Shown: piece by piece, positions 47,336 through 59,628 of the stretch | How positions within the stretch are numbered: position 1 is the stretch's first letter | How the letters are laid out: each line of letters opens with the position of its first letter | Sequence record: MN445184 | Source of the DNA: Escherichia phage vB_EcoA_4HA11 | Strand: one strand, 5' to 3' | DNA length: 64,000 nt | Program-made: the position numbers and the translations under genes | Notes under the pieces: model-generated | The model's database searches: none | What the model was told of the DNA's origin: nothing | The model's input: only the letters and a program-made list of their open reading frames with translations

Positions 47336-48529
47336 ATGAACAAAACCATCTTCGATACCCTTTCCCTCAACCGCGATCTGGTTCATTGGGAAGATTATCT
47401 CTACAAACATACCCCGTGCGAACTCGTCGCCAACCCCGAAACCAATCAGCAGGTTTGGTTCAAACGTGAAGATTACTTCGCGCCTTTGTCATGCTATATG
47501 AATGGCAAGCAAGGGATCAATGGCAGCAAACTCCGTCAGGCCATCTGGCTCATGATGGAGCATCTGAAAGCTGGAGGATCCCCAGATCTTATCCATGGTA
47601 CTGTCGTTGGTAGTCCGCAGTCCCCTATGGCGACGGCAGTCTCACGGCATTTCGGCGGCAAGACAACCACTGTGCTGGGTGCCACTAAACCAACCACATG
47701 CATGAATCATGATATGGTTTCAATGTCAGCATGGTTTGGTAGTGAGTTCAACTTTGTTGGATCTGGTTACAATAGCACCATTCAGCCGCGCTGTAAGAAA
47801 CTCATTGAACAATTAAATCCAAAGGCGTATTATCTGGAATATGGCATTACATTGGATCATACCGTTCATTCACCAGAACGCATTGCTGGATTCCATATGC
47901 TGGGTGGTGAGCAGGTTGCCAATATCCCAGACCATATCACTGATCTGATCATTCCTGCTGGTTCTTGTAATTCATGCACCAGTATCCTGACAGGTTTGGC
48001 GATGCATCCGAAACCAAATCTGAAGAATGTCTATCTGATCGGGATTGGACCAAACCGATTAGATTTCATTGAAAGTCGTTTGCGCATTATCGGTAAGCAA
48101 GCAAACCTCCCTCACATAACTGATTTCACTCGTCGCTATCACGACAACCCAGACTATGTGTATGGTAAGAAGGATCTCCAGCATGCCTCTAAGAGCGTTT
48201 CGCTGGCTGGCCTCCTAAGTGGTATCAGGCCAAAGAACGAGCCGGATATCGTGCTTCCTCGTTTTGAGGTACACCATTGGGATCTTCATACCACTAATTG
48301 GGTTCGTTACAACGACCTCATGGATTACCAGTGGGGAGATATTGAGTTGCACCCTCGTTATGAAGGGAAGGTGATGACATGGATACAGGAACACAAACCA
48401 GAATTGCTTAATGAGAACTCATTGTTTTGGATCGTGGGTAGCAAGCCATATCTGGAAGCGATGAAAGCTGCTTGTCCTGAATTATCAATACCTGAACATG
48501 TCCCTGTGAATGAGTTTGTCCCCAGCTAA
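47336..48529 (+). CDS. putative PLP-dependent enzyme (fold-type II-like lysine motif)
   Basis: GINGSKLRQA resembles the S-x-K-x-R PLP-lysine motif of Trp-synthase-beta/CysK-type enzymes; 397 aa; SD AGGAGAA. Confidence 0.4.
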   Translation: MNKTIFDTLSLNRDLVHWEDYLYKHTPCELVANPETNQQVWFKREDYFAPLSCYMNGKQGINGSKLRQAIWLMMEHLKAGGSPDLIHGTVVGSPQSPMATAVSRHFGGKTTTVLGATKPTTCMNHDMVSMSAWFGSEFNFVGSGYNSTIQPRCKKLIEQLNPKAYYLEYGITLDHTVHSPERIAGFHMLGGEQVANIPDHITDLIIPAGSCNSCTSILTGLAMHPKPNLKNVYLIGIGPNRLDFIESRLRIIGKQANLPHITDFTRRYHDNPDYVYGKKDLQHASKSVSLAGLLSGIRPKNEPDIVLPRFEVHHWDLHTTNWVRYNDLMDYQWGDIELHPRYEGKVMTWIQEHKPELLNENSLFWIVGSKPYLEAMKAACPELSIPEHVPVNEFVPS

Positions 48530-48534
48530 TCCAT

Positions 48535-48568
48535 CCTAAATACCCCATACGACCAGTGTGGGGTATCT
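48535..48568 (+). promoter_or_regulatory. late-promoter-like CTAAATA box plus leader hairpin (same cassette as the tailspike genes) upstream of the ADP-ribosyltransferase-like gene
   Basis: CCTAAATACCCCATACGACCAGTGTGGGGTATCT then ATG; arms AUACCCCA/UGGGGUAU. Confidence 0.45.
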
Positions 48569-49018
48569 ATGAAAACCTTTCTAGAATTTTATCGCGAATC
48601 AACGTTACCTGATTTTACGAATATCGTTTTGTATCATGGGTCTAATGTTGAATTCGATATATTTGATTTTGAAAAATTTGGCCAGACTGACTCTGGTACG
48701 ATGGGTGCTGGGTTTTACCTGACGGGGGATCCAGAAAAGGCACAGATCTACGCAGAAAATGCCGTGCGCTATCGTCAATCTGGTGAACCTATTGTCATGG
48801 CATTTCGTGTCAAGGCCAAGAAGACTCTTGTAATAGATTCCAACAATGTTTCGGTGTGGGAAAATAAAATGCGTGAGTTGGGGATAAAGCCTGGTAAGAT
48901 ACATGATAATGTGAAAGAACTTATCAACAAAGGGTTCGATTCTATAGCCTCTATCAGTGCCAATAATGTTGAGGAAATGGTGGTGTTTAAGCCAGGGTTG
49001 GCGACCAGAGAAGCCTAA
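48569..49018 (+). CDS. minimal ADP-ribosyltransferase-fold protein (PARP/Tpt1-like H-Y-E class)
   Basis: H23-G-S, G-A-G-F-Y50 and Y61 (Y-x10-Y), NVEEMVVF (E135/E136) with spacing close to PARP catalytic cores; similar to the KptA C-lobe (LYHGT...HYVHL) from memory. Confidence 0.55.
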   Translation: MKTFLEFYRESTLPDFTNIVLYHGSNVEFDIFDFEKFGQTDSGTMGAGFYLTGDPEKAQIYAENAVRYRQSGEPIVMAFRVKAKKTLVIDSNNVSVWENKMRELGIKPGKIHDNVKELINKGFDSIASISANNVEEMVVFKPGLATREA

Positions 49019-49053
49019 ATAGTCCAAAGCGTTTTATTCAAGAGGACATTGCC

Positions 49054-57638: not shown

Positions 57639-57842
57639 ATGAAACAGATGTCTAAATATTTTGTGTTCGTCGGATTGGTGATGTGTATCACAGCTGTGCT
57701 CGTCGGTGTCATGAAATATTTGGGCATCGTTGAGTTGGATTCAACCGAAATATTGAACGTTTACGCGTTATATTATTTGGGGGGTGCTATCTTATTAACG
57801 CCTTTCGTCTATAACATAATTCAGAGTTTCAAAAGGAATTAA
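57639..57842 (+). CDS. small membrane protein
   Basis: 67 aa, two hydrophobic helices. Confidence 0.5.
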   Translation: MKQMSKYFVFVGLVMCITAVLVGVMKYLGIVELDSTEILNVYALYYLGGAILLTPFVYNIIQSFKRN

Positions 57843-57843
57843 A

Positions 57844-58230
57844 ATGAAAATCCTCATTCCACGCAACGTTGTCGCTGTTGCTATTGATTACCGTGGTGAT
57901 GCGAAGATGATTAACGCTGTCCGTTATTATCCGGAACAGAATAAAATCGTCCCACAATTTCAACTGAATACCAATCCTTCTTCTAAGGATTTCGGTTCTT
58001 GGCGTCAGGTGGGTTTGGCTCGTACCCAAGTCAATGCCCAGCATTTTATTTCCGAAAAGACGAAAACCGCCAAGCAAATTTGGTTGGTGACGAATGATCG
58101 TCGTTTCCTGCCTATCTGGTCTCTGGGACAGCCCGTAGTAAGCCCCGAAGAAATTCAGCTGGCTCCCGAAGCTGAGCCTGAAGTTGTTTCTCCTGTAGAG
58201 GAAGCGAAAGATGAAAATCAAGCAGGTTGA
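57844..58230 (+). CDS. hypothetical protein
   Basis: 128 aa, ATG, tightly packed with neighbours. Confidence 0.55.
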   Translation: MKILIPRNVVAVAIDYRGDAKMINAVRYYPEQNKIVPQFQLNTNPSSKDFGSWRQVGLARTQVNAQHFISEKTKTAKQIWLVTNDRRFLPIWSLGQPVVSPEEIQLAPEAEPEVVSPVEEAKDENQAG

Positions 58231-58396
58231 TTTTATCTTCATGATGTTGATGTTCGTTATCTTTACGGTTTCGCTGGTCGGCGTCATGGTCACAGAAGGG
58301 GTGCAACAGCGCCCATTCTTGGTGATATGTCCTGTATCGATCGCCACTTTCTTCTATCTGGCGTTCCGTGTTGAACTCGGGAGTAAAATCGGATGA
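58211..58396 (+). CDS. small membrane protein
   Basis: 61 aa, hydrophobic. Confidence 0.45.
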   Translation: MKIKQVDFIFMMLMFVIFTVSLVGVMVTEGVQQRPFLVICPVSIATFFYLAFRVELGSKIG

Positions 58397-59628
58397 TACA
58401 CATTTCTAAAATGCCGCAGGGATATAAAGCCCCTGAAAAATGGAAATACCCGATTGATCTGGCAGTAGATTATCGTAAGCCAGAAAATCGCATGTACCTG
58501 CTCAAGGCATGGGTGGAGGCGCTATCCTACACTGAAGAGCATAACCAGCAAGTCCGTCTGATGGATTATGCCATAGAGGTTACAGAAGGCATCACACAGC
58601 TCGAGAAGATCGAGCGCAAGATCTGGATGGCATTCCTGTGGGGTTGTTGCTATAACGCTGTCGGGCCGTGGACGATCTACAGTGAGTTCCCTGTACCGCC
58701 TCAGTCCAAAGAAGAGATGCAGCGCTTCTCAGACTGGTACAACCTGAACTTTGAACGCATGCGATTCGATACCGACTGTCGCTACCGCAAGTCCAAGATG
58801 ATTCCGTGTGTTCAGTCCTATATTGACTGGCTGGCTGGCCGTACTCAATATGACGCTTTCCGTGGGATGTTGGTGTGCATCGATAAGACAGAACAATTCA
58901 CCCAGCTGTGGGACACGGCTATGTCCTGGAAATACTTCGGTCGCCTGAGCGCCTGGAACTTCCTAGAAGCCCTGAATATGGTCTTCGGGAACGAATACAC
59001 CATTGACGTCCCTGGCTTCATGCTGCGTGATCGTGATGGAAGCGAGTCCAACCGTAATGGCGCGGCGTTCTTGTCCAACCGTGACGATTGGGTGACTAAA
59101 CACGGGAAGAAAAAGATCAACGGTTGTCCTATCACGGATGAAGAGTGTGACATCCTTGAGGCCGACCTCGAGCAGGCGTTCCATGATTGTGTGGCTGAGT
59201 TCGGGCACCTGACGTTCATCAACCGCCTGAACTTTGAAACCTCCGGTGCTTGTTGGCTGAAGAAATTCTTCCGACTGAAGAATACCCGTTACATCGGGTG
59301 GGATGCCGAGCGTACCTGGGATGAGATAGACTACATGGAACGCGTCTGGCCTGAATACTCCTGCGCAGCGCTCTGGGAAGCCCGTTCTCTCTGGCTGCCA
59401 GATACCCTGTTGTGCGAAAAGGCTCCTGCAGGGCACGTTCCAGGCGTCCAGAAGTGGAAGATGCCTGTGTTCTTTGAGACTGGTGTTCCTCTGCATATCT
59501 GGCACCTGCAAAAGGGTACGCGCTGGGAACCATCCGAGGTATGTACGAACCTGAAGATGCCTGTGCGCAAGGTTGAGGACAAGCCGAAGTCTAGCAGCGT
59601 CAACCTCATGGCACTCTTGAAACGCTGA
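58393..59628 (+). CDS. hypothetical Cys/Trp-rich enzyme-like protein (candidate DNA-modification component)
   Basis: 411 aa, ATG overlapping upstream stop; no motif identifiable by eye. Confidence 0.55.
   Translation: MIHISKMPQGYKAPEKWKYPIDLAVDYRKPENRMYLLKAWVEALSYTEEHNQQVRLMDYAIEVTEGITQLEKIERKIWMAFLWGCCYNAVGPWTIYSEFPVPPQSKEEMQRFSDWYNLNFERMRFDTDCRYRKSKMIPCVQSYIDWLAGRTQYDAFRGMLVCIDKTEQFTQLWDTAMSWKYFGRLSAWNFLEALNMVFGNEYTIDVPGFMLRDRDGSESNRNGAAFLSNRDDWVTKHGKKKINGCPITDEECDILEADLEQAFHDCVAEFGHLTFINRLNFETSGACWLKKFFRLKNTRYIGWDAERTWDEIDYMERVWPEYSCAALWEARSLWLPDTLLCEKAPAGHVPGVQKWKMPVFFETGVPLHIWHLQKGTRWEPSEVCTNLKMPVRKVEDKPKSSSVNLMALLKR

Follow-up and report, generated by a model that had tools for sequence, protein, structure and literature searches.

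Predicted ViI-type thymidine hypermodification genes in Escherichia phage vB_EcoA_4HA11 and a putative sliding-clamp-binding peptide that they share with the DNA polymerase

The thymidine hypermodification pathway of Salmonella phage ViI (Vi01) has been characterised experimentally and has been inferred in the literature for the whole phage family. Its product, the 301-Da nucleoside 5-(2-aminoethoxy)methyl-deoxyuridine (5-NeOmdU), replaces about 40% of the T in ViI, CBA6, CBA120 and the Vibrio ViI-like phage 1.255.O, and SFP10 is listed as a ViI-like 5-HMUDK (kinase-encoding) phage (PMC5889632). Published work on ViI-like phages showed that 5-NeOmdU blocks many restriction enzymes. In purified form, ViI gp243 phosphorylates 5-hydroxymethyl-deoxyuridine (5-hmdU) within DNA in an ATP-dependent reaction (PMC8989533), and gp247 then joins L-serine by its side-chain oxygen to 5-phosphomethyl-deoxyuridine (5-PmdU) through a Cys-dependent mechanism with an exocyclic methylene (PMC8989533, PMC11472151). 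The pyridoxal phosphate (PLP) enzyme gp226 decarboxylates the resulting O-serinyl-thymine (O-SerT) to 5-NeOmdU (PMC8989533). The DNA considered here is a stretch of 64,000 nucleotides from Escherichia phage vB_EcoA_4HA11 (record MN445184; the whole stretch is hereafter the window), in which the region 47336-59628 carries orthologues of these three enzymes near a DNA polymerase gene.

The Pseudomonas phages M6 and PaMx11, with 5-NedU and 5-AcNmdU, follow the same logic, in which a 5-hmdU DNA kinase is succeeded by an amino acid:DNA transferase (ADDT) with a Cys thiolate, and M6 also has a homologous PLP decarboxylase. They differ in using glycine as the donor, where serine is predicted for the window, in extra radical-SAM, flavin or acetyltransferase steps, in a kinase of the HMUD1 rather than the HMUD2 type, and in an ADDT that is about 120 amino acids (aa) shorter. 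Neither their ADDT nor their kinase carries the C-terminal tail motif described below.

By its sequence, the window is a Kuttervirus genome (ViI-like, Ackermannviridae), collinear with ViI, a member of the same genus, from about ViI position 95146 through the genome end. Salmonella phage S8 matches the 12.3-kb region along its full length (100%) with 97% identity, SFP10, Det7 and many other Kuttervirus genomes likewise reach 97%, and 175 phage records span 80% or more of it. A preliminary description, made from the letters of the sequence, had pointed to four open reading frames (ORFs) near the polymerase as a candidate set for post-replicative thymidine hypermodification with a base kinase, a transferase and a PLP-dependent step. 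All four ORFs were found at the coordinates given for them, and the proposal was borne out for the three named activities, whose ViI orthologues (orf00226, orf00243 and orf00247) are 86-94% identical and stand in the same order and orientation near the polymerase. With a probability of roughly 0.93, we read the region as encoding the DNA-level half of a ViI-type pathway whose product would be 5-NeOmdU. This reading draws on orthology and conserved residues from the present analysis and takes its chemistry from the published ViI work.

The kinase gene (56731-57636, plus strand) encodes a 301-aa protein of the HMUD2 type that is 86% identical to ViI gp243 (YP_004327565; orf00243). It matched Pfam HMUD2 (PF18747) with E = 4.6e-150 and 499.3 bits against a cut-off of 25, the match spanning residues 1-300 and profile positions 1-298 of 298. 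The sequence GTSGTGKGT, on which the preliminary description based its P-loop kinase-like protein, lies at residues 9-17 and is identical in gp243; it is a Walker A-like P-loop, a GKG-T variant of GxxxxGK[ST].

The transferase gene (58393-59628, plus strand) encodes a 411-aa protein that is 90% identical to ViI gp247 (YP_004327568; orf00247) and belongs to the ADDT family (aGPT-Pplase2, formerly aGPT-Pplase clade 2). Comparison with the hmdU kinase and aGPT-Pplase families, as the preliminary description had advised, gave clear matches on both sides, here to Pfam ADDT (PF18724) over residues 49-292 with E = 1.8e-59 and 201.7 bits against a cut-off of 26.2. The richness in Cys and Trp that first drew attention to this protein is genuine: with 12 Cys and 20 Trp, its combined content of 7.8% is the highest among the 30 window ORFs of at least 200 aa (median 2.6%). 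In an alignment of seven diverse ADDT members E282 and C287 were invariant, and C287 aligned with the structurally characterised Cys247 of PaMx11 gp46. A three-sequence MAFFT alignment had placed C341 at that position; it was replaced by C287 in the seven-sequence alignment. Cys and Glu mutants of ViI gp247 and M6 gp51 are inactive (PMC8989533).

The gene at 47336-48529 (plus strand) encodes a 397-aa orthologue of ViI gp226 (YP_004327553; orf00226; 94% identity), a predicted PLP-dependent O-serinyl-thymine decarboxylase. The preliminary description recognised a PLP-enzyme-like protein, which stands, and gave its motif as S-x-K-x-R, which does not: the motif is S64-K65-L-R67. K65 occupies the Schiff-base (internal aldimine) lysine position and aligns with K92 of ViI gp226 and K36 of M6 gp52, the two lysines named in PMC8989533. 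The catalytic Lys, Cys and Glu of the window proteins are the same as those in ViI, and no difference in function between the two sets is known. The annotated ViI gp226 differs in a 27-aa N-terminal extension, since the window gene has 81 nt (27 codons) fewer directly after its first two codons (47336-47345). The shorter form is annotated in phage kage too, and the extension annotated in ViI is therefore either dispensable or mis-annotated.

Combined with the published chemistry, these assignments suggest the following course. A thymidylate-synthase (TS)-like enzyme encoded outside the window would provide 5-hmdUMP, and this would be converted to 5-hmdUTP; both steps are well documented in phages of this group. 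With 5-hmdUTP as its presumed substrate, the family B polymerase (52221-55217) would build 5-hmdU into the DNA, and the HMUD2 kinase is predicted to phosphorylate the hydroxymethyl group there and give 5-PmdU. In the next step Cys287 of the transferase would attack C6 with expulsion of the phosphate, generating an exocyclic methylene to which the side-chain oxygen of L-serine would add. Both the use of L-serine with an O-linkage and the product O-serinyl-thymine, expected as a nucleoside of 345 Da, are predicted from the 90% identity to gp247. Removal of CO2 by the PLP enzyme, with Lys65 forming the Schiff base, would yield 5-NeOmdU.

The early part of this course probably has its genes elsewhere. 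The TS-like dUMP hydroxymethyltransferase, gp67 and gp160 were not found in the 64-kb window (tblastn E > 0.3), and neither MazG, a dNMP kinase, pyrophosphatases, the M6 radical-SAM enzyme nor an HMUD1 kinase was present in it. The search for a TS-like dUMP hydroxymethylase that the preliminary description had recommended thus found none in the window; in ViI this enzyme is Vi01_060c, whose gene thyA (37163-38203) adjoins that of gp67 (38203-38865), a second kinase of the HMUD1 type. The gene for gp160, a helical-domain partner, lies at 87432-88655. Taken together, the pre-replicative genes, gp67 and gp160 of ViI fall at 36-39 kb and 87-89 kb. All three precede position 95146 or so, where the window starts on the ViI map, and are therefore expected by synteny to fall outside it.

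Between the polymerase and the kinase lies the remaining member of the set proposed in the preliminary description, a haloacid dehalogenase (HAD)-superfamily hydrolase (55633-56415, plus strand). The ORF spans 55573-56415 (280 aa) and the likely true start at 55633 gives 260 aa. Its DxDxT motif is present as proposed (D43-V-D-L-T47 in the numbering of the ORF), together with D211-D212 (IDDN), and the HAD assignment holds; its membership in the pathway is not supported, and we leave it out of the pathway set. The protein is 86% identical to ViI Vi01_194, matched Pfam NT5C (PF06941) with E = 8.7e-8 and 32.7 bits against a cut-off of 24.8, and is classified as an NT5C-type 5'(3')-deoxyribonucleotidase. 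By analogy with the dTMPase of the hmU Bacillus phages, it probably acts on the nucleotide pool.

A feature of these enzymes that goes beyond the described chemistry is a short peptide at their ends. The polymerase, the kinase and the transferase all terminate in V-[SN]-L-Φ-x-Φ-Φ followed by K/R, whereas the PLP enzyme has the peptide in an internal loop. The C-termini read HKRRVNLLSMMGKKG in the polymerase, TKSSVSLLGLLSKG in the kinase and KSSSVNLMALLKR in the transferase, and the PLP loop reads ASKSVSLAGLLSGIRPK; the putative clamp-binding peptides are KRRVNLLSMMGKKG, KSSVSLLGLLSKG, SSSVNLMALLKR and SKSVSLAGLLSG. In the polymerase, VNLLSMM (55182-55202, plus strand) stands four residues before the stop codon. 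In the kinase, VSLLGLL (57604-57624, plus strand) stands three residues before the stop after a linker rich in Lys, Ser and Thr, and in the transferase VNLMALL (59599-59619, plus strand) stands two residues before it. The internal copy of the PLP enzyme, VSLAGLL (residues 288-294; 48197-48217, plus strand), lies in a variable insertion loop that has no counterpart in M6 gp52. The pattern V[SN]L[LMA][SGA][LM][LM] matched four times in the six-frame translation of the window, in exactly these four proteins, against 0.023 matches expected analytically from composition; as the pattern was defined after the sequences had been seen, this count alone is weak evidence, and other lineages supply the independent test. 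The four copies are written in different codons, so it is the peptide that has been under selection, and neither the copying of a DNA segment nor a recent duplication explains them.

Throughout the complete ViI genome the strict pattern occurred five times, in the same four proteins and at the C-terminus of Vi01_049c, a 70-aa Cys-rich (CxC...CPCC) protein encoded outside the window (L009:30355-30567, minus strand) that ends in SDKVNLLSLMRK. A close variant, SVNLLDRLKKPE, ends gp160. The start of gp67, MSYSLKGLLKRP, may be an N-terminal variant of the peptide, which is doubtful. None of the nucleotide-pool enzymes considered (the HAD protein, the TS homologue, dNMP kinase, pyrophosphatases and dCMP deaminase) carries the peptide.

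Related loci were searched for with a four-sequence alignment. The record of Salmonella phage 38 was left out of the comparison on account of its fragmented genes. Two tail classes were distinguished, class I of the window type ([SN]-[LV]-Φ-x-Φ-Φ, then basic residues) and class II ([KT][KR][KR]L[WF] at the terminus). In the loci of Serratia phage phiMAM1 and of the Klebsiella, Dickeya and Erwinia types, the tails of polymerase, kinase and transferase were all class I, and so was the PLP loop wherever its gene was in the stretch (phiMAM1 and several IMG/VR loci); the gp160 orthologue lay outside the stretches examined. In the Vibrio phages D531 and K444, the polymerase ends in ARKLW, the kinase in TKKLW, the transferase in TRKLW and gp160 in TKRLW, and the PLP loop carries KTR[KR]LF. 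In one metagenomic locus (L036), which contains neither polymerase nor PLP gene, the kinase ends in NNVFDIFGA, the transferase in HSLNDFFG and gp160 in KSVLDLF. Three further metagenomic loci (L038-L040), likewise without the PLP gene, combine a class I polymerase tail (KKKVNVFSFIKKKAE) with class II tails on the kinase (K[KR]LW), the transferase and gp160. The tail type thus switches between lineages in step, except in the polymerase of L038-L040.

The closest described counterpart of such a peptide comes from the sliding clamp gp45 of phage T4. The C-terminus of the T4 polymerase gp43, EKASLDFLFG, binds gp45, and in the T4 ligase, which has a Kd of about 10 µM for the clamp, an internal loop copying the polymerase tail does so too (PMC6212786). 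The clamp is also bound by the C-terminus of T4 gp33, and the base-modifying T4 alpha-glucosyltransferase binds gp45 as well. As in these T4 proteins and the gp55 tail, the peptide of the window enzymes is short and hydrophobic, occupies either the extreme C-terminus behind a flexible linker or an inserted loop, and is common to the polymerase and other DNA-acting enzymes; with alpha-glucosyltransferase, clamp binding by a base-modifying enzyme has a precedent. The T4 motif LDFLF differs from that of most lineages here, with the exception of L036, whose tails are nearly identical to the T4 gp43 tail. In addition, it is a whole multi-enzyme modification pathway that carries the peptide in ViI-like phages, where binding would be predicted from sequence. 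Considering these likenesses, the tails and the loop probably, at somewhat better than even odds, bind a gp45-like phage clamp (Vi01_135c in ViI), whose gene lies outside the window, and would recruit the modification enzymes to DNA that has just been replicated. In Ackermannviridae-type phages most of the hypermodification machinery, namely the kinase gp243, the transferase gp247, the decarboxylase gp226 and gp160, each with a peptide like that of the phage's own polymerase or gp33, would accordingly consist of clamp clients, with the same degree of confidence, and modification would be physically coupled to clamps left on the new DNA. The late-transcription co-activator gp33 ends in KSKKLI in ViI and in VKTRKLF in Vibrio phage D531, so class II is also used by an expected clamp client.

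A 140-aa YAcAr/SLOG-family protein of the window (2722-3144, minus strand), orthologous to ViI Vi01_144c, ends in KPKTKRLL, a tail of the same kind as that of the phage gp33 homologue. No other protein of the window ends in this way, and this one may be an additional clamp client.

Several points weigh against the pathway assignment. The kinase and gp243 disagree at 14% of their positions, chiefly across a diverged C-terminal third; the PLP enzyme stays below the cut-off of Pfam PALP (PF00291) with 31.3 bits against 35, its match over residues 24-249 (E = 1.7e-7) being significant yet sub-threshold, as for a divergent member; pre-replicative genes were not seen within the 64-kb window; and 5-NeOmdU as the product in vB_EcoA_4HA11 is deduced from orthology with ViI. 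Like the HMUD2, ADDT and NT5C matches, the PALP match nevertheless lies far outside what chance would give. PDB sequence searches with the three enzymes returned no meaningful relatives, and NCBIfam has no models for them. It could be supposed that the genes encode ordinary enzymes of nucleotide and amino-acid metabolism, a guanylate kinase and a threonine dehydratase or ammonia-lyase, that are unconnected with DNA bases: PHROG 4409 carries the label "guanylate kinase", and the names in RefSeq and GenBank are "guanylate kinase" and "putative threonine ammonia lyase". This is so improbable as to be almost negligible, given the full-length HMUD2 match, the ADDT match and the lack of any guanylate-kinase or dehydratase match in NCBIfam; moreover, the ViI proteins of 86-94% identity act on DNA in purified systems, which has already refuted the idea for the ViI orthologues. 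Clear homology to unrelated nucleotide-metabolism enzymes, named in the preliminary description as grounds for rejection, was thus not the case for the kinase, the transferase or the PLP enzyme. That the same enzyme families lead to another final adduct, through a different amino-acid donor or with decarboxylation skipped, is very improbable, if a shade less so. ADDT enzymes across phages use glycine, serine, putrescine or diaminopropane, and the window transferase differs from gp247 at 10% of positions; against this, the PLP partner keeps 94% identity and an intact Lys65, and ViI, CBA6, CBA120 and the Vibrio ViI-like phage all contain the same 301-Da nucleoside (PMC5889632). The Vibrio orthologues compared are about 50% identical, with the order of PLP gene, polymerase, HAD, kinase and ADDT preserved, and the product appears stable over far larger divergence if the assayed Vibrio phage is, as we infer, as divergent as they are. 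The HAD hydrolase could itself be a DNA-level step of the ViI-type pathway, for example one that removes the phosphate from 5-PmdU in DNA and in this way holds modification at about 40% of T, and its homologue does keep its place between polymerase and kinase in the Vibrio phages, in distant relatives and in all lineages examined. Such a role is unlikely: the protein falls in NT5C, a family of mononucleotide 5'-nucleotidases; the ViI pathway was reconstituted from other proteins (PMC8989533, PMC5889632), with no need of this one; and it lacks the tail peptide, which is present in the polymerase and in four of the five hypermodification proteins (gp67 having the doubtful N-terminal variant only). 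Depletion of the dTMP or dUMP pool, as by the dTMPase of hmU Bacillus phages, suits the HAD enzyme better.

For the tails, a competing explanation is that they bind some other common partner or are basic-hydrophobic tails that attach to DNA or membranes, which we consider possible and on balance doubtful. In its favour, the clamp-binding role is a prediction from sequence, class II (K-K/R-L-W) offers two hydrophobic residues only, and in the three loci L038-L040 the polymerase and the modification enzymes bear different tail types, the former class I and the latter class II, which also counts against recruitment by the clamp. The same is true of the activity of the purified ViI enzymes in vitro without a clamp (PMC8989533). 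On the other side, the C-termini of the T4 polymerase and gp33 are clamp-binding elements, and here the polymerase and gp33 bear exactly the two tail classes; the enzyme tails of one lineage (SLNDFFG, NVFDIFGA and SVLDLF) come close to the T4 consensus SLDFLFG; and the internal ligase loop and alpha-glucosyltransferase of T4 both bind gp45. Recruitment by the sliding clamp remains the reading that we favour for the tails, at the strength stated above. The two pathway papers (PMC5889632, PMC8989533) do not mention a clamp, and a full-text literature search of incomplete coverage found no paper linking clamps to hypermodification enzymes. If anything in the present account is new, it is the polymerase-like tail that these proteins have in common, and an earlier description of it is possible.

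Within the region 47336-59628, the PLP gene is followed by two small plus-strand genes and by a minus-strand gene block (49539-52201). The polymerase gene is of the family B, T4-like type, with a likely start at 52221 in an ORF of 52062-55217 (plus strand); it is collinear with ViI Vi01_190 and gave NCBIfam matches to polymerase II and type B models. A plus-strand run 3' of it comprises a lipoprotein-like DUF7292 gene, the HAD hydrolase, a DUF7254 gene, the P-loop kinase, three small ORFs and the transferase. The DUF7254 gene (56426-56731, plus strand; Pfam E = 1.3e-52) begins with GTG, preceded by GAGGAGG, and ends in a stop codon that overlaps the kinase start codon (TAATG), an arrangement that suggests translational coupling. 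A role of this protein as a redox partner, implied by the name "putative thioredoxin" in some records, was ruled out, as it contains no cysteine.

Of the two small genes 3' of the PLP gene, one encodes a 149-aa protein (48569-49018, plus strand) with matches to ART-PolyVal (ADP-ribosyltransferase of polyvalent proteins, E = 4e-10) and DUF3990, whose homologue in Dickeya phage LIMEstone bears the annotation of a structural protein of the virion; the window protein may therefore be an ADP-ribosyltransferase that is injected. Directly 3' of this gene and 5' of a bidirectional hairpin (49516-49535), a highly acidic 152-aa protein (49054-49512, plus strand) is encoded that has no Pfam match and is annotated as structural in its relatives. 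Shortly upstream of the PLP gene, a 172-aa protein (45975-46493, plus strand) contains an Sf6-type tail needle knob domain (Pfam Phage_tail_NK, E = 5.8e-29), and three tRNA genes (Met-CAT, Asn-GTT and Ser-GCT) lie at 44027-45348 on the plus strand in a G+C-richer stretch upstream of the region. Strong terminator-like hairpins at 49516-49535, 51545-51564, 55231-55250 and 59858-59893 mark off what appear to be transcription units. Two of them, both bidirectional, stand on either side of the minus-strand block, a third lies 3' of the polymerase, and one with a 16-bp stem lies downstream of the transferase. Terminator-like sites numbered 25 against 12.4 expected, and a promoter scan gave 24 sites against 19.9 expected, which is not above background.

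The gene set itself is not new, and most public records still mislabel its kinase, PLP enzyme and transferase. Public annotation is systematically misleading in that the HMUD2 kinase appears as "guanylate kinase", gp67 as "terminase small subunit", the PLP decarboxylase as "threonine ammonia lyase/dehydratase" and the ADDT as "hypothetical protein". If the clamp reading of the tails is true, it would account for the way in which a DNA chemistry that runs in several steps after replication finds nascent phage DNA, and the precedent of T4 alpha-glucosyltransferase and gp45 would be extended to a whole pathway. The polymerase-like tail would then be a simple sequence marker by which, in phages yet to be characterised, modification enzymes that act on DNA could be distinguished from enzymes of the nucleotide pool.

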